From IMG/VR virus record IMGVR_UViG_3300043395_001470, positions 1-54,313 of that record: a DNA stretch of 54,313 nt; one strand, written 5' to 3'. Shown in pieces: positions 10,302-49,653 of this stretch (positions are counted from its first letter, which is position 1; each line of letters starts with the position of its first letter). The position numbers and the translations under genes are program-made. Source of the DNA: a virus. Taxonomy: Duplodnaviria; Caudoviricetes. Below the pieces are notes generated by a model. It was not told where the DNA came from. It did not search any database and was given only the letters and a program-made list of their open reading frames with translations.

Positions 10302-10502
10302 CTATTTAATAATTTCCCAGTGTTCGTTTCCAGTCTTAGGAACCCATGTAAAGTATTTGCGATTGATAGATGCTAGAAAGAGCATCTCATCAGTCTCTTG
10401 TTCTACTTCCATGGCATGAAGTGAATCCATGAGGTTTGCAAATCTGTTCTTTGCTTTAGAACTTTTAGGTTTGATGTTAACGAATTGTTTCTTGGTTTTC
10501 AT
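10302..10502 (-). CDS. Hypothetical protein
   Basis: ORF track; TTGACA-18-TAGACT promoter upstream (about 10549-10578). Confidence 0.65.
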   Translation of the reverse strand: MKTKKQFVNIKPKSSKAKNRFANLMDSLHAMEVEQETDEMLFLASINRKYFTWVPKTGNEHWEIIK

Positions 10503-10551
10503 GATGTTTTTAAGAACTTAGAGTTTGATCTTCAAACCCAACAAAGGTAGT

Positions 10552-10989: not shown

Positions 10990-11035
10990 ATTCGTAACCA
11001 GGTTTCAATAAGGACACTATAAAGGATTTTTTCTG

Positions 11036-11866
11036 TCAGTGTGAACTCCTATGTGCCAGTTTTTCTACTGCCACAATATCTTTATATTTTTTCTTTTTAC
11101 CGCACGATACTTTATAAATCGCGCCTTGACTATAACCATTTTCTTTTGACCAGTTTGTTAATCCACACTGTTCAATTACGTTTCCATCAGCAAATGTAAT
11201 CTTCCACCACATAGAACGAGAATGATTTTCTCCACTCATTTTTTGTCTTATTTCTAAAGAATGTTTTTTTCCAAAATATGGATTATTTTCTCCACTATTT
11301 CTTTTACTTAACTTTTCTTTAAAATCCTCTGAGACCTTTCTCCCTTTGTTTAATTCACTAATTTTTCTCTTTGTTTCTTCAGAGTGATTTCTACCAAGCA
11401 TAGGATTTCTATTTCTTTTCTTTGCTGCTTCACTCATTTTTGCTCTACTTTCTAAAGACATTTTTTTGCCTGTATGTGCTTTACTTCTTTTTTCTCTTTC
11501 TTCTTCTGATATTTTTTTACCATACATAGGATTATTTTTTCCAGACATCAAAATACTTCTTCTTAACCTTGATGATTCATATAAATGTGAATTTATATAA
11601 GTATTTTTTGATTTTTGAGAATTCATACACCAAAAAGCGGTAATCATTTTTTTGGTTTTCTGGTGGTGTATTCCATACCTTTGAATACAAATTTTTTCTA
11701 ATAGTGCGTGTGCTATATAATGTTCTCTTGCAGTAAGAACAACAATTCTATTGTTTTTTCCAAATATACTTTTTGGAAATATATGGTGTTTTTCTATATA
11801 ACCCTCAGGAGGAGTTCTATTCTCTGCTTTCCTGATAAGATTACAATAAACCTTTAGATAGTTCAT
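11036..11866 (-). CDS. HNH homing endonuclease with NUMOD3 repeats
   Basis: EKHHIFPKS...N...LTAREHYIAH; repeated NPMYGKK/HSEETKRKIS motifs; start re-assigned to MNYLKV. Confidence 0.85.
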   Translation of the reverse strand: MNYLKVYCNLIRKAENRTPPEGYIEKHHIFPKSIFGKNNRIVVLTAREHYIAHALLEKICIQRYGIHHQKTKKMITAFWCMNSQKSKNTYINSHLYESSRLRRSILMSGKNNPMYGKKISEEEREKRSKAHTGKKMSLESRAKMSEAAKKRNRNPMLGRNHSEETKRKISELNKGRKVSEDFKEKLSKRNSGENNPYFGKKHSLEIRQKMSGENHSRSMWWKITFADGNVIEQCGLTNWSKENGYSQGAIYKVSCGKKKKYKDIVAVEKLAHRSSH

Positions 11867-11898
11867 TTCTACTCTAACTGACTGCATTAGTATTTATA

Positions 11899-11952
11899 TT
11901 ACAAAGGAGAGTATTTCTACTCTCCCCACCCGAAGATTGCAGTCAGTCAGGC
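11899..11952 (-). ncRNA. Predicted HEG-associated antisense small RNA, copy 1
   Basis: Lies between CTAAATA (11958-11964) and a terminator hairpin (11906-11925); its segment at 11938-11950 is complementary to the HEG leader at 11874-11886. Confidence 0.5.
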
Positions 11953-11960
11953 AATATTAT

Positions 11961-12065
11961 TTAGATTATAAAATCAAGAGACATTTTAGTTAATCTGACC
12001 ATCCAATTTAAGAATGCTATAAAACTACCAATGAAAATCAATCTGTCCAGCGTGGAGTACCTCAT
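11961..12065 (-). CDS. Small membrane peptide (34 aa, MRYSTLDRLIFIGSF...)
   Basis: Translated by hand; GGTGGAG RBS and promoter upstream. Confidence 0.45.
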   Translation of the reverse strand: MRYSTLDRLIFIGSFIAFLNWMVRLTKMSLDFII

Positions 12066-12161
12066 CGGTTTTGTGTGTCTCCACCTACTATAAAACCTCA
12101 CAGATCACTCTGTGAGGTTCAGTGTGTCAGTTTTTAAGGTGTCACAGGGACTTTAGGATGT

Positions 12162-12374
12162 TTATTGTTTTTCTTGACTTTCTTCGTTTTCTTCTTCCTT
12201 TTTTTCTGGTTCTGGAAGTGTAGTACCAGTTTGTTCTAGATACTCAATTGCACCTTGTACTTTAAGAAGAAGTTCTCTTTTTGATGTAAGTTGATTACTC
12301 AAGATATTCACATCAGAAATCAGTTGTTGATGTTGTTCGATCAGTTGAGTTAAATGTGTTTGTTGTTCAGTCAT
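12162..12374 (-). CDS. Small coiled-coil protein downstream of tail fibre
   Basis: ORF track; CATAAATA late-promoter-like motif at about 12395-12402. Confidence 0.65.
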   Translation of the reverse strand: MTEQQTHLTQLIEQHQQLISDVNILSNQLTSKRELLLKVQGAIEYLEQTGTTLPEPEKKEEENEESQEKQ

Positions 12375-12421
12375 AACTTAGAATCATTTTCGAATATTTA
12401 TGAGGTTACTAGTGAAGGGGA

Positions 12422-12550
12422 CTACTCTCCGTCAGGGATGGATTCCAACGCTTCCCGAATCGTGGTGAAGTCCCACGAACAGCAAGCATCGTCAGAATTC
12501 TCCAGACTCTTAAGCAGGGCCAGTGCCTGTTCCTTAAGGGTGTAAGTCAT
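12422..12550 (-). CDS. Small protein (42 aa, MTYTLKEQALALL...IREALESIPDGE) inside the GC-rich fibre-tip cassette
   Basis: Translated by hand; starts 4 nt after the fibre stop. Confidence 0.5.
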   Translation of the reverse strand: MTYTLKEQALALLKSLENSDDACCSWDFTTIREALESIPDGE

Positions 12551-12554
12551 TTGA

Positions 12555-14462
12555 TTACGCGCTTTCAAGAGCAGCAACTTTGGCCTCAAGGGTTTCGATC
12601 TTGGTCAAGGCTTGCTTGAGTGCCAAGTGGTACATGGCTTGGAGCTTGGCGTTGTCGTAAGAGCGAATGGACCCCTCGTCATCTGTTTCGCCAGTGTCGA
12701 AGATAAGCGAAGGGTCAACGGCTTCTACTTCGTCAACGATATAACCATAGTTTGTTGACTCTGGATTGTTTTTATACGCAAAACTCCGTATCGGTAAGTC
12801 TCGCGCAACATTCCAAGAAATCTCTGGGCTCAGCGGCGCACTATCAATATCTTGCTTGAGGCGACGCTCCGATGTAAGCGAGGTAATCGTGGTGACATCA
12901 CACAAAATGCGATCCGTAAAGCGCACACGCTCAATAGGAGTAGCCGAAGCATCTGTGGCGCCATCTCTGTTGGTGTAAAATCGCAAATAACCGTTTGCGC
13001 GATTCGTGGCAGTATTATCCTGCGTGACAATAATTGCGGCTAGAGTTTTAGAGTTTCCGTTTGTACTTAGCCCTCCAAAAGAAATAACTCCAGCGTTCGC
13101 GTTAGATCCTCCTCTGTAGGCAAGGCCAATACCAGGAGCATTATCGCCACCAATATACGTACCGGCTCCAGTAATAAAACCAGCCGCATTGTACGAGTCA
13201 TAAACATAGTAGTTTTGAATAACGCTTCCATTACTCGTGATCCTCATCCGCTCCGTCGGAGAACTCGCACCATCCGCAGTAGTGGAGAACACTAGGCGGC
13301 CTGGCATGTCGTTGGCGCCAGGGGTGCCGTCGACTTCACACCTGATCTGACCACCAGCTATAAACTCAGTACCATCAGATCCTTGAAAATCAACGCTTCC
13401 CAACAGGTCATTATTTCCCACAAGGGTATTTCCACCTACCGAGCCAGATTTTTGCCTGGCCAGGATTAGATATGGACCGTAAACCGTATCAGAGCTGGTA
13501 ACAGAAAGAATTTGAGCGGTTCCCGTACCTTCGAGTTGAAGTTGGGGAGAGAAACTTGTTGTATTAAAGAAATTGCTACGCGCACTAGACGTACCAACTA
13601 GGAGCCTGCCGGAGCTGTCAACTTTAACTCTCTCAGAACCATTAGTACTTACAGTAAAAACGTTAGCAGTAGAACCACTAATCGTAACACCAGTACCTAA
13701 AGTAGCATTACCACCAGTAAGTACAATACCACTACGAGCAGTTACAATACCAATAGAATCTACATTAGTTACATCTTCATAAGTTAATGTACCACCAACA
13801 GAAACATTACCAGTAAATGTAGCAGCAACACCACTAATATTTCGTGCTGTTACATCAGGAGTTCCACCACTAATACCACTCTGAGAAATACTCAAAGTTC
13901 CAACATTAATCGTATTATTAGTTCCATCAAGAGTAATACTTGAAGTGCCAACAGTCAGAATACCAGTAACTCTTGCATTTCCGTTGACAAGAAGTGCTGT
14001 AGTTCCTGTTCCAGTGATTACTACATCACCAGAAGTATTCCAGGATGGTCCACCAGTTGAAAGTTTTGCTGGTGTTACAGTTCCATCACCAGGAACACTT
14101 ACAGCAACAGCAGGTCCTAATGATACAATCGAACAATCTAAACCAGCACTAGGAGCAGTTGTAAAAGTAATATTAGAACCTGATACAGTGTAATCTGTCA
14201 ATGGTTCTTGGACAATACCACCAAGAACAACTCTTAACTGTTGAGCATTTGCTGGTGTTAATGATACTCCAGAAACAGTAAGAGCAAATGTTTGAGTGGA
14301 ACCGTTAAAGGAACTCTCAATATTGTCAACGATACTTATGTTTTTTGATGATGATGCAGTATAACTTTTCCAAACAACTCCATCCCACTGATAAGTGAAT
14401 CCAGAGGTAGAATCTGCATATAACTGTCCCGTTGTGGGATTATCTGGAAAGTTTAAAGCCAT
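12555..14462 (-). CDS. Tail fibre protein with C-terminal intramolecular chaperone (peptidase S74-type)
   Basis: G/T/S-rich beta repeats, RLLVGT and ERMRITS motifs, SERRLKQDI cleavage motif and terminal coiled coil. Confidence 0.85.
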   Translation of the reverse strand: MALNFPDNPTTGQLYADSTSGFTYQWDGVVWKSYTASSSKNISIVDNIESSFNGSTQTFALTVSGVSLTPANAQQLRVVLGGIVQEPLTDYTVSGSNITFTTAPSAGLDCSIVSLGPAVAVSVPGDGTVTPAKLSTGGPSWNTSGDVVITGTGTTALLVNGNARVTGILTVGTSSITLDGTNNTINVGTLSISQSGISGGTPDVTARNISGVAATFTGNVSVGGTLTYEDVTNVDSIGIVTARSGIVLTGGNATLGTGVTISGSTANVFTVSTNGSERVKVDSSGRLLVGTSSARSNFFNTTSFSPQLQLEGTGTAQILSVTSSDTVYGPYLILARQKSGSVGGNTLVGNNDLLGSVDFQGSDGTEFIAGGQIRCEVDGTPGANDMPGRLVFSTTADGASSPTERMRITSNGSVIQNYYVYDSYNAAGFITGAGTYIGGDNAPGIGLAYRGGSNANAGVISFGGLSTNGNSKTLAAIIVTQDNTATNRANGYLRFYTNRDGATDASATPIERVRFTDRILCDVTTITSLTSERRLKQDIDSAPLSPEISWNVARDLPIRSFAYKNNPESTNYGYIVDEVEAVDPSLIFDTGETDDEGSIRSYDNAKLQAMYHLALKQALTKIETLEAKVAALESA

Positions 14463-14492
14463 CTTATTATACTTTTTAGGTATTTATGTTGA

Positions 14493-15875
14493 TCACCACT
14501 CAACGATTACGAGTCCTGGTGCTCCGTTTGCTCCTGTTGCGCATCCACCCGCGGGTGGAGCAACAATTACACCTCCAGCACCAGATCCATACCCACATCC
14601 AGGGCATCCGGGTTGGATTGTTGTTGGATCAATAGAGTTGCCTCTGGTTCCACCAACTCCAAACGGCCCACTAGCTCCTGCACCTCCAATGGTTACCCCG
14701 GGATCTACTCTATATCCTCGACCATTAAAATGACATGAGATTGTACCGCACTGCAAGGTTGTAGGGAACGTAGCTGTATTTGAGAATATACCATAAGTTG
14801 CTGTTGCTGGAGCACTATTTCCATTAGATCCAGGAGCCCCACCACCAAACCCACCGCAAGCGTCATTGCCAAGGCAAGGACCACTACATCCAATACATCC
14901 ACCATGAGTTAAGAATACTGTAGGACCACCAAAAATTGTATCTCCTCCTGCTCCACCAACAGTCACCGGATAAGAACTACATGCTGGTGGTACTGATAAT
15001 AGTTTTACTGCTGCTGATCCTGCTCCACCACCACCAATAACACATCTTATAGATGGAGGGAGACCTGGAGTTGATCCTCCACCACCAGTGGCAGTAATCT
15101 TAAGACTTGTAGTTCCTGGTGGAACTGTAAAAGTTCCTGGGTTAGTAAATACACAAAATCCACCACCACCAGATAAACCAGTAATAGCACTGGAGGGAAT
15201 ATTAGAAAGTCCCGAACCATTTCCAGAGAAACATGAAGTGGCACAAACGACTCCACCAGTTACTGTTCCAGGAACTGTTGCTGTTCCTGCTGTTATGGTT
15301 CCTCTTATACATCCTGTGGTAGCAGTAATAATACCTGCTGTAACACCTGAAGAATTTAATGTAACAGCTGTTCCAACACGAATATTATCACTATTTCCAT
15401 CAAGTGCGATTGTTCCTTGACCGACTGAAAGAATTCCAGTAACTCTTGCGTTTCCTTCTACCAATAAAGCAGTGGTTCCAATACCAATCGTTACCTTTCC
15501 AATACCATTTGTAGTACCTAATGTAGAAATACCAGTTACATGTAGATTTGCGGTATTTAAGGTATTAGAGTTTGAATCAAAAGTTAAGTCACCATCAGTT
15601 GCAGATGCAGTCATCGTGCCTGATGTTTGAGTGGTGACTACAACTCTTTGAGAACCCGATGCAGCACTTAGAGTTGATCCAGTGTTTGTAAGATTACTTC
15701 CATCTCCAAAAAATTGACTCGCAGTTACTGAAGAACTTACAGAAACATTATTAGTAGTAACGACACCAACAACATTAATACCAGTAGAATTAATTGTAAC
15801 CGCAGAACCAACAACTACATTTTGTGCTGTGGATATGCCTACACCACCTACTAATTGTGCCTTTGTCTGTGACAT
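14493..15875 (-). CDS. Tail fibre/adhesin with Cys-rich glycine-rich C-terminal domain
   Basis: VGVVT/GIGT repeats; GGGG loops; ends GLVIVEW; TATAAATA at 15901-15908. Confidence 0.75.
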   Translation of the reverse strand: MSQTKAQLVGGVGISTAQNVVVGSAVTINSTGINVVGVVTTNNVSVSSSVTASQFFGDGSNLTNTGSTLSAASGSQRVVVTTQTSGTMTASATDGDLTFDSNSNTLNTANLHVTGISTLGTTNGIGKVTIGIGTTALLVEGNARVTGILSVGQGTIALDGNSDNIRVGTAVTLNSSGVTAGIITATTGCIRGTITAGTATVPGTVTGGVVCATSCFSGNGSGLSNIPSSAITGLSGGGGFCVFTNPGTFTVPPGTTSLKITATGGGGSTPGLPPSIRCVIGGGGAGSAAVKLLSVPPACSSYPVTVGGAGGDTIFGGPTVFLTHGGCIGCSGPCLGNDACGGFGGGAPGSNGNSAPATATYGIFSNTATFPTTLQCGTISCHFNGRGYRVDPGVTIGGAGASGPFGVGGTRGNSIDPTTIQPGCPGCGYGSGAGGVIVAPPAGGCATGANGAPGLVIVEW

Positions 15876-15909
15876 TATGACTCGATAGTATCCTTTTTGT
15901 TATTTATAA

Positions 15910-16827
15910 TTAATTTTCTATTTCCTTTACGATTTTCTGATATGCCTCCTCGATTTCTTCCAGAGTAAATGCAATCCTATCTTCATTCAGACGATTAGCA
16001 AGATGGGATTGCATCCCCGAAATTCTCATGGTTGTTGGTTCTAACTTCACATCTCTTTTGATAATTTGGAAATGATCTGGATAAGAATTATTTTTTTCAT
16101 GAACTCCACCAATCACAACCGTTGCTTTCTTATTCAGAGCACGAGCAAAATGTTGACCGCAACTATCACAACCAACGAAGTAATCTGCTTCAGAAATAGC
16201 AGCAGCCCACTCTCTCAAACTCATATCAGGATCGGGAATATACGTCTTTCCGTCATGTGCCTGAGCAGGTCCAAAGTAGATTACATTATATTTCTGCATC
16301 AACTTATCAATCAAAGTATCATACATCGATTGGGGAATGGATCTTAAACTATCGTCAAACATTCCAATAGGATATAAGGTAGCAGTGCTTCCATATGGTT
16401 GAATAATGATTGTCTTTTCTTTTCCTTGTGCTTTCTTTGCCTTATGAATATGTTCTTTTCCTTTTAAAATCTCTGCTTGAGATAGTTTAATAATTGAATC
16501 TGGAAGATCTTTATGATCATGAGTTCCGTTGATTTCCACATCAAATGCTTCCGCAAGTGAAATCTCATTTCGATAATACTTAGGAACCTTATATGGTTCT
16601 GGTGTAATCACACGATCAGCATTCCAAAAATATCTCTCAAAAATTCCTTTATTTTCTGGATTAAAAGTTCTATTTTGAAGTTCTGGAATGCCCCAATACA
16701 TCCAATCCCATCCGCCAACCATTACATACCATTCTTCTTTTGGATGTAACTTGCCATATTTTAAGAGAGCAGGAATAGCAGTTACAACTCTTCCTGCTCC
16801 ACCATCGATGCAAATAACTGTTTTCAT
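15910..16827 (-). CDS. Glycosyltransferase, GT-B fold, GT9/heptosyltransferase-like
   Basis: N-terminal DGGAGRVVTAIPAL; IIIQPYGS; SLREWAAAISEADYFVGCDSCGQHFARAL. Confidence 0.7.
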   Translation of the reverse strand: MKTVICIDGGAGRVVTAIPALLKYGKLHPKEEWYVMVGGWDWMYWGIPELQNRTFNPENKGIFERYFWNADRVITPEPYKVPKYYRNEISLAEAFDVEINGTHDHKDLPDSIIKLSQAEILKGKEHIHKAKKAQGKEKTIIIQPYGSTATLYPIGMFDDSLRSIPQSMYDTLIDKLMQKYNVIYFGPAQAHDGKTYIPDPDMSLREWAAAISEADYFVGCDSCGQHFARALNKKATVVIGGVHEKNNSYPDHFQIIKRDVKLEPTTMRISGMQSHLANRLNEDRIAFTLEEIEEAYQKIVKEIEN

Positions 16828-18518
16828 GCTTTTCTCACAAGGAAGTTTCCAATCACAAGATAATCAATATCCATATTTAAAAATGAACGAATAGCATCTT
16901 GTGGTGTTTCGATAATTGGTTCACCATTATCGTTGAATGAGGTATTTAGAAGAACTGGAATACCCGAGATTTCATTAAACTTACGAAGAAGTGTAGTAAC
17001 ATGAGGACTTAAATGTTCATTTACAGTTTGAATCCTACAAGTCTTATCTTCATGAGTGATTGCTCCAAGAGTATCAATCTTATCATCTTTTACTGTCAGA
17101 GAGTAAAGCATGTAAGGAGAGTTGAAGTCTTCATTAAAGTATTCTGTCAGATGTTCCTCCAACATAATACCTGCAAAAGGTCTCCAATATTCACGATGTT
17201 TTACTCGATGATTCATCACATCCTTATTTTCTTTTGGTCCAGGATGCATTAAAAGTGAACGAGATCCAAGTGCCCTTGGACCAAACTCAGAACGATTCTG
17301 GAACCACCCAATAATCTTATTATTATTCAGTTCTTGTGCGGTAAACTCACAAAGATCTTCAAAGTTTTTATATCTTTCATAAGTAACTCCCGAATCATTC
17401 AGTGATGATTCAATCTCATCATTTGAGTATTCTTTACCCAGAAGAGCAATATTATCAGGAAGTTCGATTGGTTGATTATTTTTAAATTGACCAAAACATG
17501 CTGCACCAAAATGAAGACCTACATCATTAGGACATGGTGGAACATGAATATCCTTAAACAATCCACTTTGTTTGAGAACAGAGTTGCCAAGAACATTCAA
17601 GAATGAACCACCAGAGAAGCAAATATAGTCCTCAAGATAAGAGTTTTTCTTCAGTTCTGTAACATAGTCCAACAACGCAAGTTCGAAGTTCTTTTGAATA
17701 ATGAAAGCTTTCTCATCAGCATTTCGGAACTTAAATGCATTTGTTGGATCTTTCACAAAAGTCACATAAGGAATATCATCATAAGCAAGATCCTTTGACA
17801 TTTGATACATGAGGTTTTCATCAGTAAAGTTCATAGAACTTCCGTATGCCGAAAGACCCATGATCTTACCATCCCAAGTCTCACGATACTTTTCATCCCA
17901 TCCATCAATATTTTTTTGAACTTTTTCACAATAAATCTGATGAGAAAGTGAGTGATAAAATCCACCAAAATCATTTGATCCTGGAATACCATTAAAGAAT
18001 CGGAAGATGCCCTTTTCCTTATTAAAATAACCAATAGAGTTGGTCTCTGCCATCATGGTTCCAGTAAACCCACAATTAAATGTGAGAGAACCAGCACCAT
18101 CTAAAGTGATAAATGACCCTTCATTAAATTTTGAAGAAAACACTGAAGCAGCAGCATGACTTAAGTGGTGAGAAACCAACTTAAACTCTGCATTTGGAAA
18201 TCTCTCCTCAATCATTCTCTTTACAGTCCCTTCGTACCATTTCTTATAGAACATGGTCACACACATTGAAGGAACACAAACCAAATCTACGTCTTCTCCA
18301 CTGATGTTTCCAGCAGATAAACAATAGTCGATTGAGTTTTGTGGAAAGTTTCCATCATGCTTTTTACGAGTAAGTCGTTCTTCAGAAATAGAGCAGATAT
18401 GTTTTCCATTTACAAACAAAGTTGCCCCAGCATCATGACACCATGTGGGTTCACCTTGTTCGTTGACTGATTTATCTGCCCTCCAATCAAAAGAACCATA
18501 AAGACCAAGAGTAATCAT
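16824..18518 (-). CDS. Carbamoyltransferase (NodU/CmcH/TobZ family)
   Basis: HDAGA, SEERLTRKKH, HHLSHAA, LDGAG, GKIMGLSAYG, EFGPRALGSRS, RPFA, LNTSFN motifs. Confidence 0.92.
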   Translation of the reverse strand: MITLGLYGSFDWRADKSVNEQGEPTWCHDAGATLFVNGKHICSISEERLTRKKHDGNFPQNSIDYCLSAGNISGEDVDLVCVPSMCVTMFYKKWYEGTVKRMIEERFPNAEFKLVSHHLSHAAASVFSSKFNEGSFITLDGAGSLTFNCGFTGTMMAETNSIGYFNKEKGIFRFFNGIPGSNDFGGFYHSLSHQIYCEKVQKNIDGWDEKYRETWDGKIMGLSAYGSSMNFTDENLMYQMSKDLAYDDIPYVTFVKDPTNAFKFRNADEKAFIIQKNFELALLDYVTELKKNSYLEDYICFSGGSFLNVLGNSVLKQSGLFKDIHVPPCPNDVGLHFGAACFGQFKNNQPIELPDNIALLGKEYSNDEIESSLNDSGVTYERYKNFEDLCEFTAQELNNNKIIGWFQNRSEFGPRALGSRSLLMHPGPKENKDVMNHRVKHREYWRPFAGIMLEEHLTEYFNEDFNSPYMLYSLTVKDDKIDTLGAITHEDKTCRIQTVNEHLSPHVTTLLRKFNEISGIPVLLNTSFNDNGEPIIETPQDAIRSFLNMDIDYLVIGNFLVRKA

Positions 18519-18521
18519 AGA

Positions 18522-19244
18522 TTAACCATTCCCCATATCAAATGCAAATTGTGCTCGTTGTCCGTCTTGAAGAACATAATGGAAAAAGATTTGATGATAA
18601 TATAAACCTTCTTTTTCTACCTTTGCTCCATACCAAGTTCTTTTATATTCTCTTGGAAGAGGTTCCCTCCAGTGTGGTCTCTCACAACCTTTGTAAATCA
18701 TACCATCACCAGGACCAAGAATCACCGAACGATTCTCACCTTTCTTGATGATATTTGCTTTGGTCTTAGGGTCATCATAAGTATCTGGAGTTTTAATCCA
18801 AATAGGCCATGGATTACTTACATTTGAACTTACATGAATCGTAACTGAAATCTCACAAGCAGGACGATCTGCATGATTGGTCAGTGCTTGCCCTGGATTA
18901 TAAAACCTATCATAATAGTAAGTATTATAAAGTTTCTTACCGATTGCTTTCTCAAGTTTTAAACGAATCTGAGAATGGGCAAACTTGTAAGGAGGCCAAT
19001 AGTATCTTGAAGTTGATCCTTCAACCTGTCCTTCTAATGGAATGTGAGAAAACTTCTCAATCTTTCCGTAGTAATTGTATTGACCTTTGATTTCTGGTGG
19101 ATCACAATAAAGATCTTTTGGATCCCACAGATTTTTTAGAACCAGATATCCATCTCGATCAAACTGTTCATTATTTGTTGGCGATGAACCTGAGTTAATT
19201 CTTTCCTGCCAATCGATGGCATCTTGTGTCATTTGTTCTGCCAT
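18522..19244 (-). CDS. 2OG-Fe(II) oxygenase
   Basis: HxD (HADRPACEISVT), distal His (HWREP), QIFFHYV. Confidence 0.8.
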   Translation of the reverse strand: MAEQMTQDAIDWQERINSGSSPTNNEQFDRDGYLVLKNLWDPKDLYCDPPEIKGQYNYYGKIEKFSHIPLEGQVEGSTSRYYWPPYKFAHSQIRLKLEKAIGKKLYNTYYYDRFYNPGQALTNHADRPACEISVTIHVSSNVSNPWPIWIKTPDTYDDPKTKANIIKKGENRSVILGPGDGMIYKGCERPHWREPLPREYKRTWYGAKVEKEGLYYHQIFFHYVLQDGQRAQFAFDMGNG

Positions 19245-19247
19245 AAT

Positions 19248-19955
19248 TTAAATCTCCTTTGATTTTATTCCCCCCAAAGTCCACCCTTCACCGGGACATT
19301 CTTTTGAGAATTTTTGTTGTTCTCCATTATTCCAAAGTTTTCTGCCAATTTTTGATTGACCTATTTTGTCACGGACATTTGGTGGAGTTACTTTTCCGTA
19401 ATTTGGATTGTTTTCTCCTTTGTTGTTTTCTCTAAATTTTGCTTTTGACTCTTCTGAATGTTTTCTACCTTTAAAAGGATGACCTAATGTTCTGAATTGT
19501 TCTAAAGTTTTTTGCCTTATCAATTCTTTTGTTTCTTGAGAATGACTTTTTCCATAAAAATGATTGTCTTCTCTATATTTTTTTATTCCAGGTCTTCCTT
19601 TTGAAGATTTTGAAAGTTTTTCTCTGGTTTCTTTTGAATGTTTTCTTCCGTAAAATGGATTATCTTCACCAAACTTTTTTTCTGCATAATAAAATCCAGT
19701 GGTTTTTTGTCTTGCCTTATTTGCAAAATGTGGATTTTTATCTACTTGATAAAACTTATGAAGATTTACTTCAGCCTGAAGTGCTTCTTCTCTTGTGGAA
19801 AAAGTTTCAAGAATTATCTTATGAGAAGGGTTGAAAGTTTCATCGTGATAAGAACCAAGATAGTTATCTTCTTCAGGAAGACATTTACAGGTTCTACAAC
19901 CTATGTAACCTCTACCAAACTCCTCATAAGAATAATAAACATAATGATTTTCCAT
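19248..19955 (-). CDS. GIY-YIG (Seg-like) homing endonuclease with NUMOD3 repeats
   Basis: HYVYYSYEEFGRGYIG...YLGS...E...N; NPFYGRKHS repeats. Confidence 0.8.
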   Translation of the reverse strand: MENHYVYYSYEEFGRGYIGCRTCKCLPEEDNYLGSYHDETFNPSHKIILETFSTREEALQAEVNLHKFYQVDKNPHFANKARQKTTGFYYAEKKFGEDNPFYGRKHSKETREKLSKSSKGRPGIKKYREDNHFYGKSHSQETKELIRQKTLEQFRTLGHPFKGRKHSEESKAKFRENNKGENNPNYGKVTPPNVRDKIGQSKIGRKLWNNGEQQKFSKECPGEGWTLGGIKSKEI

Positions 19956-19971
19956 AGTATTATTGGTCCTA

Positions 19972-19998
19972 GATGGAGTTATTTATATTACCTCCATC
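19972..19998 (-). promoter_or_regulatory. Late promoter TATAAATA in the loop of a GATGGAG/CTCCATC hairpin
   Basis: Direct reading; architecture like T4 HEG translational-control hairpins. Confidence 0.6.
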
Positions 19999-20003
19999 GG
20001 GGT

Positions 20004-20639
20004 TCAGCGCCACCGGTTTCCCACGCACCATCCAACTAGTGACTTTCTGACACCACTAGTTACTTTCTGAACCCTATGTTGTGTCCTTGAATCAAAGAGA
20101 ATAATCGCACCTCTTTGACGAGGAGCAATATAAGATTTTCCACTCTCTCCAAGAAGTTGGAGATTGCCGCCTTCATAAGTATCGGGATCAGAAAGAAGCA
20201 AACTAAAAGATAACTTTCTTACTTTTTCGCAACTTTCATTAATAAAATCCTGAGCAATCTCATTTCCATTTCCACGATTACCTGCAGATACTGGCTTATA
20301 GAGACTATCAATACCTGCGTCATTATGCCAACCATAATACTCCCCTTCTCCATACACAGTATATTGAAGTGATTCGCCATCAATATTATCTAAATCATAT
20401 AAAAAGTTTTCACGATTTGCTCGTTGCACATAATGCCAAACAAATCCACCAATCCAGTGAGATGTTGGCACCCATGCATTTTTTGCGTTTCTTTTATCTT
20501 TATCTACAGTTCCATAATCTCCACCACCCACTCGTGAATCTTGAAGGTGTGGATCAAAGTTTTCTGCAAGGTCTTCTTCAATTATATCAATAATCTTATT
20601 CGGGATATCACTGTAGTACCAAATCGACTGATATGCCAA
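20004..20639 (-). CDS. 2OG-Fe(II) oxygenase (prolyl-4-hydroxylase-like)
   Basis: YGWHND...RKLSFSLLLS...YEGG...HRVQKVTSGVRKSLVGW; TTG start. Confidence 0.85.
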   Translation of the reverse strand: MAYQSIWYYSDIPNKIIDIIEEDLAENFDPHLQDSRVGGGDYGTVDKDKRNAKNAWVPTSHWIGGFVWHYVQRANRENFLYDLDNIDGESLQYTVYGEGEYYGWHNDAGIDSLYKPVSAGNRGNGNEIAQDFINESCEKVRKLSFSLLLSDPDTYEGGNLQLLGESGKSYIAPRQRGAIILFDSRTQHRVQKVTSGVRKSLVGWCVGNRWR

Positions 20640-20668
20640 AAGTCAATCTCCTTATGTTATTCAGACAC

Positions 20669-20697
20669 ATTATATATCAGTTTTTTTATAGTGTCAA
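20669..20697 (-). promoter_or_regulatory. Consensus sigma70-type early promoter TTGACA-17-TATAAT
   Basis: -35 at 20692-20697 (overlaps HEG stop), -10 at 20669-20674. Confidence 0.75.
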
Positions 20698-21317
20698 TTT
20701 ACTTTTTCAACCTTTATAATGTCCTTATATTTTTTTCTATAACCAAGTTTTACATTATAAATTCCAGAATAATGATATTCACTATCTTTCATAAAATCCA
20801 TAATATTTTTAATGATAATACTTTTACCATTATCAAAAGTAATTTTATGAGGACTTGATTTTGATGCACTCACTTTTCTTTTATGTTCTTCGGTACAAGT
20901 TCTACCTTTTCTAACCGCAGACATTTTTGCTTTTGTTTCTTCACTTAATTTTTTACCTCTATTACTTTCAGCAATCTTATCATAAACCCACTGTGGCCTT
21001 TTCTTACCAAGATTTGCTTGACGAAGTTTTTCTCTTGTTTCCTTACTTCTTACAGCACCAGAAGCACCATCTCCACCGTCACTTTTATTTCTTAAGATTC
21101 CATTATTTAAATCAATCCTACCAAACATTAAGATATAAAGTTTCTCTAAAAGAAATGCCTCTTCTTCAGTGAGATTATCTTTAATAATTTTAACTCTTGA
21201 TTTATCTCTTGGTGGTTTGACTTCTTTTGGACCTTTTGTATAGGCTCTTTTTCCAGAACCTTTACCGATATAATATGGACTATGATCTTCCCGTAAATAC
21301 GAGTAAACGTAATACAT
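20694..21317 (-). CDS. GIY-YIG-like homing endonuclease with NUMOD3 repeats
   Basis: YYVYSYLRED.SPYYIGKG...R...E..YI..FGR...LRNKSDGGDG; SEETKAKMS. Confidence 0.8.
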   Translation of the reverse strand: MYYVYSYLREDHSPYYIGKGSGKRAYTKGPKEVKPPRDKSRVKIIKDNLTEEEAFLLEKLYILMFGRIDLNNGILRNKSDGGDGASGAVRSKETREKLRQANLGKKRPQWVYDKIAESNRGKKLSEETKAKMSAVRKGRTCTEEHKRKVSASKSSPHKITFDNGKSIIIKNIMDFMKDSEYHYSGIYNVKLGYRKKYKDIIKVEKVN

Positions 21318-21349
21318 TTCTACTCAAATGAACCGCAGAAATATTTATA

Positions 21350-21400
21350 CTAAAAAGGAGGGACTTTCACCCTCCTCCTGAAGTTTGCGGTTCATCAGGT
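21350..21400 (-). ncRNA. Predicted HEG-associated antisense small RNA, copy 2
   Basis: ATAAATA at 21406-21412; terminator 21357-21375 plus T-tract; segment 21386-21395 complementary to the leader at 21328-21337. Confidence 0.5.
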
Positions 21401-21414
21401 TTAGTTATTTATGT

Positions 21415-21759
21415 TTATACCGAAGGATTTACTACAGGATTTTCTACCAATATCCAGTTTACAGTATCTTCATCCCATTCATAATGAGATCCTTCTGGGG
21501 CATCAGTTGGCATAGGAACTGGTGCTTCCCATCTAAACTCATCATTAAGAATCCATGATGGATAAGGTGCATCGGGATAGAAAGCATTTGCAGTTGCATC
21601 GTAGTTATCATCACGATTGACTGGATAACCAATTGTATTAATATCCCAAGGAATTATATCACATTCAGTTGTCCAATATGGATCAAGGTCTGACTGACCA
21701 TCCCATTCAATATTATTGACGACTTTATTTGTTTCTTTAGATACTGCTGCGTAATTCAT
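21415..21759 (-). CDS. Tail-fibre-associated small protein (assembly-chaperone-like)
   Basis: PYPSWILN...WEAPVPMP...YEWDE pattern; directly downstream of the Gly-rich adhesin. Confidence 0.6.
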   Translation of the reverse strand: MNYAAVSKETNKVVNNIEWDGQSDLDPYWTTECDIIPWDINTIGYPVNRDDNYDATANAFYPDAPYPSWILNDEFRWEAPVPMPTDAPEGSHYEWDEDTVNWILVENPVVNPSV

Positions 21760-21794
21760 GGTTTTTCTCCTTTAAAGTTTTATGGATATTTAGA

Positions 21795-22610
21795 TTACCA
21801 CTCAACGATTACGAATCCTGGTGATCCTGTTCCAGCTGCTACTGGGCCTCCATCCCCGGAGGATCCTCCGGCACCAAATCCAGTAGCATTTCTAAAGCAA
21901 TAACCACCACCAGTGCCAAAATAACTAGATTGACCATGACCACTGCTGCCATAGATCGAACCAGGAGCTCCACCTGCCGATGTGACCAAGGTACAAGAAC
22001 ATTGTCTAACTTGTCCGGGATTACTAATTAGATGAGTGGCAGTACTAGGAACACATCCATAATTACCTTGAGATCCTCCACTAAAGCAGCCGCCGCCACA
22101 TCCAGTACACCCACCTTCTGTTAAGAATACTGTAGGACCACCAAAAACAGTATCTCCTCCTGCTCCACCAATAGTCACCGGATAAGAACTACATGCTGGT
22201 GGTACGGTTAAGTATTTAACTGCTGCTGCTCCTGCTCCGCCACCTCCAGATCGGTACTGATCCCCCCCGAAGAGGGGGCAGCTAGAACCATTACCACCAC
22301 CACCAATTGCAGTAATCTTTAAAGTCGTTGTTCCTGGTGGAACACTAAAGGTTCCTGGTGAACTAAAAGTACATACTCTAATACCACCTAAAGAACCAGT
22401 AATGGCACCTGAAGGAATATTAGAAAGTCCCGAACCACTTCCAGAGAAACATGAAGTAGCACAAACAACTCCACCAGTTACTGTTCCTGGAACTGTTGCT
22501 GTTCCTGCTGTTAAAGTACCAGTTACACATCCTGTAGCAGCAGTGGATACTCCAGCATTTACATTTCTACTGTCGTCTATTACTGTACAACCGTTGACTT
22601 TAATTGCCAT
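21795..22610 (-). CDS. Cys-rich glycine-rich adhesin/tail protein, paralog of 14493..15875
   Basis: Shares near-identical DNA blocks with 14493..15875; ends GFVIVEW. Confidence 0.75.
   Translation of the reverse strand: MAIKVNGCTVIDDSRNVNAGVSTAATGCVTGTLTAGTATVPGTVTGGVVCATSCFSGSGSGLSNIPSGAITGSLGGIRVCTFSSPGTFSVPPGTTTLKITAIGGGGNGSSCPLFGGDQYRSGGGGAGAAAVKYLTVPPACSSYPVTIGGAGGDTVFGGPTVFLTEGGCTGCGGGCFSGGSQGNYGCVPSTATHLISNPGQVRQCSCTLVTSAGGAPGSIYGSSGHGQSSYFGTGGGYCFRNATGFGAGGSSGDGGPVAAGTGSPGFVIVEW
22120..22513. repeat. Duplicated blocks shared with the 14493..15875 gene (22120-22205 vs 14908-14993; 22414-22513 vs 15196-15295)
   Basis: Direct nucleotide comparison, few mismatches. Confidence 0.85.
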
Positions 22611-22641
22611 CGTCGTGTCTCCACTCGGCTTTTACTTTTGA

Positions 22642-24555
22642 TTATTTATTATTTTTTAACTGTTCTATCTCAGCAGAAAGTTCTTTTACTGCCTCAATAA
22701 GAACACCAATAATACCATTATAGTTCACAGTTTTTGGATCAGTATCTGTAACGAGTTCTGGTAAAATCTGTTCAAGTTCTTGTGCGATCACACCATAAGA
22801 AGGTTTATGATCTCTCTTCCACTCAAATCTTACACCACGGAGATCATTTACGATACTCACAGCATCACTTACGGTTGTGATGTTTTCTTTTAGATTAAGA
22901 TCTGATGTTGAGTTAAAGTCAAATGCAGTAACAACACCAACAGTGATAACTCCACCAGAAGTAATGGTAACTGCTGAACCAACTCGTGCTGATACTGCAG
23001 TTAGAACACCAGTTATACTAGCATCTCCAAATACATGAAGTCTTGATGTTGCTGTAGAACCAAGACCTACATTACCAGAAGAGTTGATGTGGATTCTGGT
23101 TTCTGCTTGAGTATTATCAGTGATTCTGAAGTTTGGATTTGATCCACTACCCTCAACATCAATAGCCCATGCATTTGTATTATCAGAGGCACGAGCAAAT
23201 ACAATTTCACCACCAGCAGAAACAGAGTCAAGTCTTGCTAATCTAAGGTCCCCATGAACATCTAAGAGACTAATTGGTGCGTTGGTTCCGATACCAACAC
23301 TACCAACACCAGTAACGACAAAAGGAGTAGCATCAACATTTGCTGAATCTTCAACTACAAGAGCATTTCCAGATCCAGTTTGAGTAATTCTGACAATATT
23401 ATCTGTTGAGTTTCCAGAGAATACTGCAAGATTTCCACTAAATGTACCAGCAAATCCAGTCGCAGAAGCAATACCAGTAACTACAATACCATTTGGATTT
23501 GCAGTTAAGATTGTATTTCCTACTGATACAATACCAAATTGTCCTGCTGTTGGTGAGAACCATCCAGTATTTGTATAACCTTCAAAATATGCTGATGGGT
23601 TATTTGCGGATCCCATAGAGAACGCAACACCAGCAAGAGTTGGATTGACACCAACATTAAATGGTGCAGCATCTACCCAGAATGCAGATGAACCAACTCC
23701 AAGAATCACCTCATCATAATAGATAAAGGTTCTACCATAATCAATATGATAGAATAAGTCACCATTTGTTGGTGCAGAAAGAATTGATAATGGAGTCCCT
23801 GGGAATGTGGAACCAATACCAATGGCTCCTCCACCACCTCCACCACCACCTTGGAAGAAGATAGTGGCAATACCTACAGAACTATTGTAGATAGAAGTGG
23901 ATACACCTGCTCCCTTAAGATCTAAGAAAGTAATTCCATAACCAACAACACCACCAGTGGTTCCAATACCAATACCTTTAATGGCATTTGATGCCAGATT
24001 CAGATATTGACCATCACCATAATATGTTACAACACCTGATGTTGCAGTTACAATACCAGAAACAATCCGAACAGTTCCAATCGTTGCTGCTGTACCTGTT
24101 AAGTTCGTTACTGTACCGTTGGTAACAATACCAGAAACAGCATAAAGGTTTGGAGTTAAAACTACTCCTGAGTTTAATGTAGTAGAATAAGAACTAGTAT
24201 AAGTTGATATTGTACCAGATAGATTGGTTACAACACCAGAAATAGCATTTACATTATTCGCATTTACGATTCCAAAGTTACCTGTGGTATATGTTAATCC
24301 TGTGCCTGTGATGGATGTAACAACACCAACATTAATGTAACCGTTAGATGCAAACGCATCAGTTGACTTCAATGTTGGAATCGTTGCAATACCAGTTACA
24401 ACTAAACTTGTAGCACCGATGCCACCATTAACTTGAAGTTTTTCTGGAGTTATGGTAGTTCCAATACCGACCGTATTTCTATCCTTATCGGCAAAAATAA
24501 GATTATCGTTTACCTCTATGCCGTTCTTGACGACAAAATTCTTTTGTACTGCCAT
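22642..24555 (-). CDS. Tail fibre protein with C-terminal peptidase S74-type chaperone
   Basis: GIGT repeats, SGNVGLG, SDLNLKENI...GVIAQELE...LIEAVKEL. Confidence 0.85.
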   Translation of the reverse strand: MAVQKNFVVKNGIEVNDNLIFADKDRNTVGIGTTITPEKLQVNGGIGATSLVVTGIATIPTLKSTDAFASNGYINVGVVTSITGTGLTYTTGNFGIVNANNVNAISGVVTNLSGTISTYTSSYSTTLNSGVVLTPNLYAVSGIVTNGTVTNLTGTAATIGTVRIVSGIVTATSGVVTYYGDGQYLNLASNAIKGIGIGTTGGVVGYGITFLDLKGAGVSTSIYNSSVGIATIFFQGGGGGGGGAIGIGSTFPGTPLSILSAPTNGDLFYHIDYGRTFIYYDEVILGVGSSAFWVDAAPFNVGVNPTLAGVAFSMGSANNPSAYFEGYTNTGWFSPTAGQFGIVSVGNTILTANPNGIVVTGIASATGFAGTFSGNLAVFSGNSTDNIVRITQTGSGNALVVEDSANVDATPFVVTGVGSVGIGTNAPISLLDVHGDLRLARLDSVSAGGEIVFARASDNTNAWAIDVEGSGSNPNFRITDNTQAETRIHINSSGNVGLGSTATSRLHVFGDASITGVLTAVSARVGSAVTITSGGVITVGVVTAFDFNSTSDLNLKENITTVSDAVSIVNDLRGVRFEWKRDHKPSYGVIAQELEQILPELVTDTDPKTVNYNGIIGVLIEAVKELSAEIEQLKNNK

Positions 24556-24581
24556 CGGTGGAGAGCGCCAACCTTTCTAGT

Positions 24582-24593
24582 TATTTATAAATA
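24582..24593. promoter_or_regulatory. Overlapping divergent T4-type late promoters (TATTTATAAATA)
   Basis: TATAAATA on both strands between the divergent genes at 24555 and 24619. Confidence 0.75.
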
Positions 24594-24618
24594 CTAAAAA
24601 ACACTTTTAGGAAATCAT

Positions 24619-25023
24619 ATGGCTTCGCAAGTATTGAGTGGTTCTTCTAACCCTTCTTATACTAACAATACTGGACAAAATGTGAGAGTTGTGATTAACT
24701 TTATGTCCAACGTAACATCTATTAGTTGGGGTGGGGTATCGGTGTCAACGTCATCAACTCCAACAATTGGAAGAAATCTTGCTTTTATTAATGGTACGGG
24801 AAATGGTGACAGTAATAATATGATTTTACCATATACAACTACTACATCGCAGCAAGTACTAGTATCTACTGATAATTTTACAGGACAACAAAACTTTACA
24901 ACTCAATCTGTAACATCATCAAATTTAGCAGCATATCCAACTGAATTAATGCTTGCTCCGGGACAAGCATTTAATTCAACTTGCGGGGCGTATAATATCG
25001 TAGTTATTCCTGAAGCAGGTTAA
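24619..25023 (+). CDS. Small virion structural protein
   Basis: S/T/N-rich; SYTNNTGQNVRVVIN...PTELMLAPGQ; late promoter upstream. Confidence 0.65.
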   Translation: MASQVLSGSSNPSYTNNTGQNVRVVINFMSNVTSISWGGVSVSTSSTPTIGRNLAFINGTGNGDSNNMILPYTTTTSQQVLVSTDNFTGQQNFTTQSVTSSNLAAYPTELMLAPGQAFNSTCGAYNIVVIPEAG

Positions 25024-32945: not shown

Positions 32946-32946
32946 A

Positions 32947-48124: not shown

Positions 48125-48626
48125 ATTTTTTATTCCAAGGAATCCTTCCTTTGGTTGCTTCACTTATTTTTCTTTTAGTTTCTTCAGAATGTTTCTTTCC
48201 AGGTTTACCTTTTCTTTCTTGATGAATTTTTCTAAGTCTTTCTATACCCTCTGGAGTTTGTCTCGGTTTTCCTTTATTAGACTCTCCAATTTTTCTTTTA
48301 TGACTTTCACTAAGTTTTCTTCCTTTTAAGGAAGCACACATTTTTCTCCTTTCTTCATCCATAATAACACCAGAAACTCCATCACCACCATTTGTCTTAT
48401 TGTGAAGGATTCCAGTTCCTAAATCTTTTCTTCCAAACACAGCAATCATATAGATTTCGTGCTTAAATGCTTCTTCTTCAGTTAGATTTTGTTTGAGGAA
48501 CATTCTTTTATTTTTTTCTGGTGGATAAAATCCATTATGCTTTTGGTGGATTCTTCTACCTTTACCTTTACCAACATAATAAGGAGTTCCATCTTCACGC
48601 AAATAGGCGTAAGTGTAATAATTCAT
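48108..48626 (-). CDS. GIY-YIG-like homing endonuclease with NUMOD3 repeats
   Basis: YYTYAYLREDGTPYYVGKG...E..MI..FGR...LHNKTNGGDG; HSEETKRKIS. Confidence 0.8.
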   Translation of the reverse strand: MNYYTYAYLREDGTPYYVGKGKGRRIHQKHNGFYPPEKNKRMFLKQNLTEEEAFKHEIYMIAVFGRKDLGTGILHNKTNGGDGVSGVIMDEERRKMCASLKGRKLSESHKRKIGESNKGKPRQTPEGIERLRKIHQERKGKPGKKHSEETKRKISEATKGRIPWNKKSIQTV

Positions 48627-48659
48627 AATTCTACTCTGTAAGTCGCAATATTATTTATA

Positions 48660-48709
48660 CAAGAAAAGGTGCCGAAGCACCCTTTCCACCCATAATGCGA
48701 CTTACAGGT
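48660..48709 (-). ncRNA. Predicted HEG-associated antisense small RNA, copy 3
   Basis: CTAAATA at 48715-48721; UUCG-loop terminator 48663-48686; segment 48696-48707 complementary (12/12) to the leader at 48636-48647. Confidence 0.5.
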
Positions 48710-48717
48710 AATGTTAT

Positions 48718-49653
48718 TTAGTCGTTGGCTAAACGAGAAAAATATGCCATCGCATCATCTTCATCCTCATCAGAAGTTTCAATCTTAGGAAGTGAAGGAG
48801 ACTTGCTGCGAGCAAAGGATTGCTCCAGTTCTGCAATCACATTCTCTTCCTTAGAAGGAGTTTGAGTGTAAGATTCATACTCATCTTCCTGCTCTTGAAC
48901 AGCAGCACGAGCAGACTTCTGACCCAGAACATACTTCAGACGCTTCTCAAGATCCTCATAAGACTTGAACTGATCAGGAGCAACGATAGCAGAGAGAGAA
49001 TACTCTTTCTTCCAAAGTGCTTCAAGTGCGTCATCATCATCCAGCAGTGCAGAAGGAGAATCAAACTCAGACTTATCATAGTTCCAGTAACCTTCAACCT
49101 TACGAATCTTCAGACGGAAGTTTGCTCCACCCCAGAAATCAAAAGGATTGATAGGTTCTTCATCTTCAAACTCAGGTTGCATTGCATTCAGGATCTTATC
49201 AAAGATCTTCTTACCAAACTTGAACAGGAAGACTTTACCTTCGTTCTCAGGATGGGCAGGATCCTTTACAACGTAGATGTTTGCAAAGTAAGACAGTTTG
49301 CGCTTCTGCTTACGAACAGTTTCTTTATCCTTCTCACTACCACTGTTCCAGAGTTCACGGTTGTGCTCGGACACAGGATCCTTCTGACCAATAGTAGTCA
49401 GAGAGTTCTCGATGTACCAACCACCGTTACCTTGGAATGCATGAGAATACATCTTGACCCAGGGGAGTTCTTCACCTTCAGGTGCAGGAAGGAAACGAAT
49501 AATTGCGGAACCAACACCAGTCTTATCCATTTCTGGTTTCCAGAAACGTTCATCAGCACCACCAGAACCAGTGCTCATTTTTTCTACTTCCTTCACCAGT
49601 TTCTCAGTGAGAGAACCCAGTTTAGATTGCTTTTTCAGATTTTCGAAAGACAT
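48718..49653 (-). CDS. gp32: Single-stranded DNA-binding protein gp32
   Basis: DERFWKP...IRFLP...HAFQG.GGWYIENS...FGKKIFDKI...GANFRLK...NYDKSEF; acidic tail. Confidence 0.95.
   Translation of the reverse strand: MSFENLKKQSKLGSLTEKLVKEVEKMSTGSGGADERFWKPEMDKTGVGSAIIRFLPAPEGEELPWVKMYSHAFQGNGGWYIENSLTTIGQKDPVSEHNRELWNSGSEKDKETVRKQKRKLSYFANIYVVKDPAHPENEGKVFLFKFGKKIFDKILNAMQPEFEDEEPINPFDFWGGANFRLKIRKVEGYWNYDKSEFDSPSALLDDDDALEALWKKEYSLSAIVAPDQFKSYEDLEKRLKYVLGQKSARAAVQEQEDEYESYTQTPSKEENVIAELEQSFARSKSPSLPKIETSDEDEDDAMAYFSRLAND

Follow-up and report, generated by a model that had tools for sequence, protein, structure and literature searches.

The element described here, a compact cassette of ~100 bases placed in front of free-standing homing endonuclease genes, is a widespread and well-defined new form of the known leader-masking control of such genes in phages. 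It was studied in the window, i.e., the whole stretch of 54,313 nt analysed (IMG/VR virus record IMGVR_UViG_3300043395_001470, positions 1 to 54,313), a 54-kb fragment of a T4-like cyanophage with an estimated completeness of 26, which harbours gp32, 2OG-Fe(II) oxygenase genes and four NUMOD3 nuclease-like genes. Read along the strand of the gene, the cassette comprises the word N[A/C]TAAATA, a purine, a hairpin (P1) with a variable guide, a GC-rich terminator, the word TATAAATA and a leader which is complementary to the guide and reaches as far as a GAG shortly 5' of the ATG. Three cassettes locate on the minus strand of the window, and the one termed copy 2 lies between gene 21415-21759 and the 207-aa nuclease-like gene 20694-21317.

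Viral contigs were scanned with a pattern describing only the downstream half of the cassette (TATAAATA, four free bases, TGC, 8-11 free bases, AGTAGAA). At least 117 stretches were retrieved, which together with the three in the window amount to 122 matches in 120 loci. At 111 of these 122 matches the upstream arm is complementary to the variable leader part with at most one unpaired position, corresponding to at least 111 cassettes. Ten of the eleven non-pairing matches are devoid of cassette-like upstream sequence and look like chance hits, the remaining one being a degraded cassette. Among the matches listed, 89 cassettes are distinct and contain 31 different guide/leader pairs. The word TATAAATA is located between the two arms in all cassettes, and a GC-rich stem followed by at least three T is predicted in nearly all 89 (L005 and L070 are without a clear one).

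The pairing of guide and leader is retained across these cassettes despite their diversity. In a MAFFT alignment of the 89, 98.4% of the helix cells are paired versus 74.3% in shuffles (0 of 500 as high), the covariation score of the helix amounts to 0.658 versus 0.217 in shuffles, and changes on both sides occur in 8 of the 12 helix pairs. Sliding the partner by 1-3 columns lowers pairing to 26-37% of cells. When arms were counted from anchors, without alignment gaps, cognate arms were found to pair at 99.4% and non-cognate ones at 63.8% of positions. RNAalifold, applied to the 89-cassette alignment, predicted the long-range helix unprompted, including two pairs across a bulged A into AGUAGAA. 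In this anchor-based count, the positions lacking a Watson-Crick pair consist of 66 with G in the guide and U in the leader, 2 U:G, 1 A:C and 6 others; 68 G·U wobbles versus a single A·C point to selection on RNA of the gene's strand, not on DNA or the opposite strand. Comparative analysis of the sequences thereby documents that the complementarity of guide and leader is kept by compensatory change, as RNA on the gene's strand.

For copy 2, all elements of the minus-strand sequence were found, correct to the base, where the sequence-only reading (a preceding annotation made from the letters alone) had placed them, and its guide at 21386-21395 is indeed the exact complement of the leader at 21328-21337. 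Since guide and leader lie in tandem on the same strand, the designation "antisense cassette" used in that reading is a loose one. Transcription starts were predicted according to PMC1524935, where T4 late transcription is described to start at the 6th nt after the promoter word. The parts of copy 2 and the two sister cassettes are as follows.

21417-21415, minus strand: stop codon TAA of the upstream gene (sequence).
21406..21413, minus strand: upstream late-promoter word cATAAATA (ATAAATA at 21412-21406), beginning 2 nt past the stop of gene 21415-21759.
Between ATAAATA and CCTG, minus strand: five bases, then A21400 (sequence).
21352..21400, minus strand: predicted 49-nt late RNA composed of A21400, P1, terminator hairpin and U5 (T4 rule, +1 being the 6th nt after the word, and two-hairpin fold).
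21377..21399, minus strand: hairpin P1, CCTGA (21399-21395) with TCAGG (21381-21377), the guide being in the 5' arm and loop (fold).
21399-21396, minus strand: CCTG (sequence).
21395-21386, minus strand: guide ATGAACCGCA (sequence).
21386..21400, minus strand: guide arm A-CCTG-ATGAACC-GCA, pairing with leader 21337-21322.
21352..21375, minus strand: intrinsic terminator GGAGGG / TGAAAGT loop / CCCTCC (21375-21357) followed by T5 (21356-21352) (sequence, fold, scan).
21342..21349, minus strand: consensus late promoter TATAAATA of the nuclease gene, predicted +1 at G21336 (sequence; T4 rule).
21337-21328, minus strand: leader TGCGGTTCAT, then TTG-AGTAGAA-ATG (sequence).
21322..21337, minus strand: leader arm TGCGGTTCATTTGAGT, spanning nearly all of the 21-nt leader and overlapping the Shine-Dalgarno (SD)-like GAG at 21325-21323.
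21324-21318, minus strand: AGTAGAA (sequence).
21317-21315, minus strand: ATG of the nuclease gene (sequence).
20694..21317, minus strand: homing-endonuclease-like gene, 207 aa, with an N-terminal GIY-YIG-like part, NUMOD3 and a C-terminal I-HmuI-like DNA-binding domain.
11859..11972, minus strand: sister cassette copy 1, before gene 11036-11887 with a different nuclease head (phrog_655).
48621..48729, minus strand: third copy, directly after gp32 (48718-49653) and before gene 48108-48626.

Layout and spacings of copy 2 recur in both sister cassettes, including the equality with copy 1 that had been proposed. With a covariance model of the cassette, the window yielded these three and no further one (94-104 bits; 20 bits for the match ranking next). 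The guides of the three are predicted to be orthogonal (cognate duplexes -17.5 to -22.8 kcal/mol, non-cognate ones -8.5 to -11.0 kcal/mol); that of copy 2, claimed to be different from the others, fits its own leader only (predicted -17.5 versus -8.5 and -9.4 kcal/mol with the other two leaders).

Folding of the 65 nt 5' of TATAAATA in copy 2 yielded the CCUGA/UCAGG stem, predicted to enclose the guide as had been suggested, together with the terminator hairpin (-17.7 kcal/mol, z -2.76, 3 of 200 shuffles as good). The full 115 nt are predicted to adopt the guide-leader pairing around the terminator instead (-35.6 kcal/mol, z -5.22, 0 of 200 shuffles), while the leader by itself has no significant structure (z -0.60); full-length RNA folds with the guide-leader helix range from z -4.8 to -6.9. 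In copy 2 this helix is made up of 10 Watson-Crick pairs, one G·U, one U·U mismatch, one C-G and then two pairs across a bulged A. The U·U mismatch in its outer part, due to TTG in the leader versus TAG in relatives, had been overlooked in the sequence-only reading. The helix spans leader positions -1 to about +15 of ~21 nt and overlaps the GAG only partly. Within the window alone, 13 perfect 10-nt inverted repeats (30-70 nt between arms) were counted versus a mean of 3.1 and a maximum of 10 in 30 shuffles; chance within the window is a weak test, and it is the comparison across cassettes that settles the pairing. The window contains few canonical terminators, and the cassettes are equipped with their own: a strict scan of the 54 kb (perfect stem, at least four T) revealed 5 hairpin sites, 4 of them on the strand of the cassettes and 2 of these within cassettes B and C, the terminator of cassette A having three T only and, hence, lying outside the strict scan. 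A general terminator scan of the window did not pick up the cassette terminators.

Nuclease-associated domains (NUMOD3, GIY-YIG, HNH, HNH_3, I-HmuI-like; E<=0.001) were identified in 63 of the 90 distinct proteins encoded downstream of cassettes, in agreement with the view of a repeated, nuclease-gene-associated element; 25 further proteins are without Pfam match, many of them with N-termini in common with the 63, and 2 have weak unrelated matches only. The cassette is, therefore, linked to homing endonuclease genes. One and the same guide (TAAGTC-GCA) precedes at least five unrelated nuclease N-termini and follows several different upstream genes, which marks the cassette as a module of its own and not the tail of one gene family. 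L037, L064 and L113, each with an A·A mismatch in the helix, precede NUMOD3-only proteins of 108-141 aa (that of L037 is cut by the contig end), which possibly represent degenerate nuclease genes. In L014, the third match at a contig end, the upstream TAAATA is missing and the helix has two G·A mismatches (12 of 14 paired), making it the single case of joint decay.

This distribution also bears on a role at the level of DNA, be it as a protein operator, a cruciform, a recombination site for the mobility of the nuclease gene, or an operator of the nuclease itself as in I-TevI, which according to PMC2988022 binds an operator overlapping its late promoter. Such a role is very improbable, given the selection on one RNA strand evident from the wobble pairs, and a guide shared by unrelated N-termini does not behave as a protein-specific operator; the guide as the nuclease's own operator is rejected, as one guide serves several nuclease families. 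A faint argument for it is that gene and cassette appear to move together: in one contig of an RNA library, 10988 is connected to 12034 by 73 other letters and both the copy 1 gene and its cassette are skipped, a weak hint (28 letters on one side, 3 mismatches) of a nuclease-free allele that is also free of the cassette. For the copy 2 site, a search for a nuclease-free allele via the upstream 114-aa protein returned three loci with 49-52% identity in unrelated contexts.

The protein encoded behind copy 2 matches Pfam NUMOD3 (8.7e-08) and PHROG 314 "homing endonuclease" (8.9e-17). Its description as GIY-YIG-like is reasonable as a tentative label, judging from residue pattern and modelled structure, even though the Pfam GIY-YIG profile yielded no match even at E<=10, where NUMOD3 alone was found; PF01541 is matched by other nuclease genes behind sister cassettes. 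The pattern Tyr...Tyr-Ile-Gly...Arg...Glu...Asn is present in 15 relatives, with Y5, Y16, G18, R24, E58 and N77 invariant and I17 nearly so, and the invariant residues are taken here to be the GIY-YIG catalytic ones. In a structure model of moderate confidence (pLDDT 75.8), residues 1-77 were aligned by VIA-align with PD-T4-3 (Z 7.2, rmsd 2.4-2.6, 70 aligned; Z below 8 being middling) and with UvrC GIY-YIG domains (Z 5.7-6.3, rmsd 2.7-3.0, 66-68 of 88-90 aligned), and residues 140-207 with I-HmuI (Z 7.1). Foldseek with this model gave nothing at E<=0.001, and no meaningful match came from searching PDB sequences with the proteins of copies 1 and 2. The nucleases of copies 1 and 2 differ as claimed: the C-terminal DNA-binding part with NUMOD3 repeats is common to both (34% identity, 151 columns, E 2e-14), whereas the N-terminal heads of proteins 11036-11887 and 20694-21317 are unrelated, a composition indicative of domain shuffling between nuclease families. 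The fourth nuclease-like gene, 19248-19955 on the minus strand (NUMOD3, phrog_314), has no cassette; it is preceded by TATAAATA in a 7-bp inverted repeat ~25 nt before the ATG (19940-20010), the fold of which lacks significance (z -1.64, 13 of 200 shuffles as good).

Among isolates, the freshwater Synechococcus phage S-SRM01 (complete genome) possesses six cassettes, with 6 of 6 model matches directly before nuclease-like genes, and it was the sole carrier found by blastn of cassettes versus isolate phages; matches in Xanthomonas and Pectobacterium phages covered 33-37% of the query (E 2e-3 to 6e-3). None of the four marine cyanophages Syn9, S-PM2, P-SSM2 and P-SSM4 gave a significant match to the covariance model, the two S-PM2 matches (E 0.32 and 0.51) preceding hli and head genes and not representing cassettes. 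The published transcript maps of these marine phages can, therefore, not decide between pairing in cis and a separate RNA. Rfam at gathering thresholds recovered two tRNAs only and no cassette family in the whole window; in a permissive search of 21200-21500 the best cassette matches attained 15-18 bits versus thresholds of 56-100.

According to the reading favoured here, to which an even chance is given, the cassette acts as a portable unit controlling the free-standing homing endonuclease genes of T4-like freshwater cyanophages, with the pairing acting both via a separate late RNA and in cis. Its core would be RNA-RNA pairing between the variable guide, situated 5' of the intrinsic terminator, and the first ~14-17 nt of the nuclease mRNA starting from TATAAATA, the promoter 3' of the terminator. 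Little of the ~21-nt leader would stay outside the duplex, which would also take in the SD-like GAG, and translation of the nuclease is proposed to be lowered for this reason. Along the first route, a separate late RNA of ~50 nt would have its 5' end at the purine located 6 nt past the upstream N[A/C]TAAATA and its 3' end at the terminator, and in its P1 fold the loop would contain the 3' half of the guide; upstream mRNAs stopping at the cassette terminator would carry the same guide on their 3' tails. Along the second, pairing would take place in cis in any transcript reading through the terminator. Both transcription starts, termination, the small RNA and the repressive outcome are predicted from sequence. 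RNA pairing probably keeps the nuclease in check, and there is a real chance that a new kind of phage small RNA is hidden in the cassette. In its most specific form, a ~50-nt late RNA per gene, equipped with a private 7-10-nt address, would pair from the first nt of the mRNA to the ribosome site, as a same-strand tandem anti-leader RNA which moves with the selfish gene and the address of which has diversified for independent control in one or in co-infecting genomes; the prospects of this version are rated just short of even.

Several properties favour a separate RNA. The word N[A/C]TAAATA is present in 85 of the 89 distinct cassettes, with A (44) or C (41) at -12; the spacer following it is fixed in 84, and a purine at the predicted +1 and then the foot of the hairpin are found in 84. 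In the window, a same-strand gene start follows 10-40 nt behind ATAAATA in 15 of 21 and behind CTAAATA in 5 of 9 occurrences, versus 0 of 5 for GTAAATA and 0 of 13 for TTAAATA. Both words combined thus have 20 of 30 occurrences in a zone covering 1.8% of positions (control words, 0 of 18), and three of the ten outside this zone are the cassettes' own. CTAAATA is reported as late promoter of phage Aeh1 and NATAAATA as that of S-PM2 (PMC1524935, PMC2984593). The TAA of the upstream word coincides with the stop of the upstream gene in only 35 of 83 contexts; a same-strand gene ends within 150 nt upstream in 68 of them, and none does in 15. In contexts L022, L039 and L105, the other strand carries a long gene (416, 564 and 789 aa, respectively) whose start lies ~45 nt upstream, so that no upstream gene reads into the cassette and only its own word could serve it.

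The RNA predicted for copy 2 measures 49 nt (21400 to 21352), the mean length over cassettes being 49.9 nt; its computed fold is P1 plus terminator for nearly every cassette, and the P1 loop then holds the 3' half of the guide. Cognate 3' arms stabilise P1 (-6.28 kcal/mol) more than arms taken from other classes do in chimeras (-4.88 kcal/mol; 24 guide classes, not independent), implying that the 5' half of the guide covaries with two alternative partners. Furthermore, the guide-leader helix ends within 1 nt of both predicted start sites: the next inner position pairs in 8 of 89 cassettes, and the outer positions in 89, 89, 77, then 26 and 11 of 89. In three S-SRM01 cassettes without TGC, which have other leader starts, the helix begins exactly at the 6th nt after TATAAATA. 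Promoter word, covarying P1, helix ends at the starts and cassettes behind divergent genes together argue for the separate RNA.

Alternatively, the pairing may operate in cis only, as in T4 I-TevI or Aeh1 mobE, a reading of considerable weight although its probability stays clearly below even. The helix would then form in upstream read-through transcripts only and silence the nuclease frame, transcripts from TATAAATA would lack the 5' arm and be translated, and the upstream TAAATA would be stop-codon context, a leftover, or a promoter with a short product devoid of a role. For T4 I-TevI and its relatives, as for Aeh1 mobE, long transcripts of the early or middle period have their ribosome site masked by structure, and those started at an inner late promoter are open (PMC2988022). 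In section 12 of that account, I-TevI/II/III, segB and mobE are each given a late promoter embedded in the RNA structure formed at their ribosome site. These T-even hairpins (I-TevI, I-TevII, I-TevIII, segB, Aeh1 mobE) resemble the cassette in that the late promoter of the nuclease gene is within the RNA structure and the 3' arm in the leader, late-promoter transcripts are without the 5' arm, and several layers of control, including terminators, are combined (PMC2988022). The cassette likewise has a stable helix with its 3' arm in the leader and, with the start set by the T4 rule, a late promoter inside the structure. Relative to the T-even hairpins as portrayed there, the cassette is distinguished by arms ~50 nt apart which enclose a full intrinsic terminator, a 5' arm within its own small hairpin behind a second late-promoter word, a helix that abuts or partly overlaps the SD-like triplet instead of burying it, and an arm sequence that varies between cassettes on a constant scaffold.

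Also comparable are the hairpins observed by Dassa et al. 2009 before endonuclease genes of "fractured gene" loci in ocean and lake metagenomes and interpreted as acting in cis (PMC2677866). In the cyanophage-like loci described there, hairpins with TATAAATA and two mutually complementary motifs are present in 15 of 16 nuclease 5' regions (PMC2677866). These hairpins, partly from fresh water (Lake Gatun), are probably the same kind of element, matched by description and not by sequence; the description concerns a cis hairpin only, and its relevant passages mention no upstream promoter word, enclosed terminator, guide diversity or covariation (PMC2677866). In the literature on small RNAs controlling homing endonuclease genes and on S-SRM01, no account of the cassette was found beyond Dassa et al. 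2009. The guide-leader fold of the full-length RNA and the nearby ends of same-strand genes, with the word's TAA as their stop in part of the contexts, likewise speak for action in cis only.

What this explanation leaves unaccounted for is the near-invariant TAAATA with A/C at -12, its fixed spacer and purine, the covarying P1, a competitor of the long helix, the sharp helix ends at both predicted starts, and the cassettes that stay intact behind divergent genes. Read-through should, moreover, be a minority event with a GC-rich terminator separating the arms, yet 98-99% of cells are paired. The upstream genes of copies 1 and 2 are preceded by the same late-promoter words, so that the T4 argument of early versus late timing is inapplicable here.

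The combined action in trans and in cis favoured above has to be held against a number of points. Documented precedents for such a layout are all cis (PMC2988022, section 12; PMC2677866). A perfect 10-bp inverted repeat flanks another TATAAATA (32929-32922) at 32885-32960 on the minus strand, with neither upstream word nor terminator; its 3' arm ends at the ATG of the non-nuclease gene 32442-32900, just 3' of a tRNA gene (-16.9 kcal/mol, z -6.5). Its appearance is that of a simple cis hairpin of the T4 type, so that this phage seems to employ such hairpins on their own as well. There is no obvious timing logic in a repressor RNA that shares the promoter class of its neighbouring target, and the duplex overlaps the SD-like GAG only in part. 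CTAAATA is assigned as a promoter in these phages by its position. As the scan pattern fixes TATAAATA, TGC and AGTAGAA, constancy of those parts is no evidence. Two S-SRM01 cassettes have 10 nt of guide in common; guides are thus not strictly private, and the notion that they are is weakened. Finally, seven RNA contig pieces on 10500-25000 (one metatranscriptome, contigs only, share 0.07) all lie outside the cassettes and are uninformative on expression.

The limited overlap with the ribosome site also leads to a third explanation, in which the pairing is real and its outcome a different one: a processing or stability signal (a site for a double-strand RNase or protection of the mRNA 5' end), or stabilisation of the 3' end of the upstream mRNA by P1 and terminator. 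The helix stops at the edge of the SD-like GAG and leaves the start codon uncovered, and PMC2988022 mentions RNase E processing for the transcripts of segB, segG and mobE as well as, in seg43(25), a hairpin of unknown effect just 5' of the ribosome site. Like the cassette, seg43(25) of Aeromonas phage 25 has a stable hairpin adjoining but not covering the ribosome site of a nuclease gene; unlike it, this is a single local hairpin, for which the pertinent part of PMC2988022 describes no terminator or second promoter. A ~21-nt leader almost wholly in duplex should, however, hinder ribosome binding anyway, and this third explanation is considered improbable.

For the separate RNA proposed as first route, a comparable arrangement is offered by chromosomal type I toxin-antitoxin loci. 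In tisB/istR-1, zor/orz and shoB/ohsC, a small RNA is encoded beside, not opposite, the leader of its target; it is short and terminated, is complementary over ~15-20 nt to the leader of a damaging neighbour gene, and pairs privately in paralogous loci. These RNAs are divergently transcribed, whereas the arms of the cassette are in tandem on one strand, with one promoter class and in a lytic phage. A non-coding RNA linked to a homing endonuclease gene of a T4-like cyanophage is also represented by CfrI of S-PM2, which in contrast to the cassette is ~225 nt long and truly antisense to the nuclease gene and psbA, as set out in PMC2984593.

Two further promoter arrangements were noticed in the window. 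A perfect sigma-70 consensus (TTGACA, 17 nt, TATAAT; 12 of 12) at 20669-20697 on the minus strand shares bases with the stop codon of the nuclease gene of copy 2 and is directed towards the 2OG-Fe(II) oxygenase gene downstream; the inserted nuclease gene appears to hold a promoter for its neighbour within its 3' end. Two TATAAATA words on opposite strands share bases at 24582-24593, in the interval separating the divergent genes 22642-24555 (minus) and 24619-25023 (plus).

Homing endonuclease genes must stay nearly silent to be tolerated, and insulation carried by the genes themselves is known in a few T-even cases only. The cassette, which has no entry in Rfam, with at least 111 instances, 31 address pairs, one scaffold and unrelated nuclease families, constitutes a natural compensatory-mutation experiment on this problem. 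With six copies in S-SRM01 and a culturable Synechococcus host, the alternative of a cis hairpin versus a separate RNA is directly testable. If the small RNA exists, it would represent a new layout of phage riboregulation and a compact design for orthogonal repressors. The anti-leader RNA would then, if the reading is true, be a new class of phage regulatory RNA, acting as a modular and re-addressable translational repressor.

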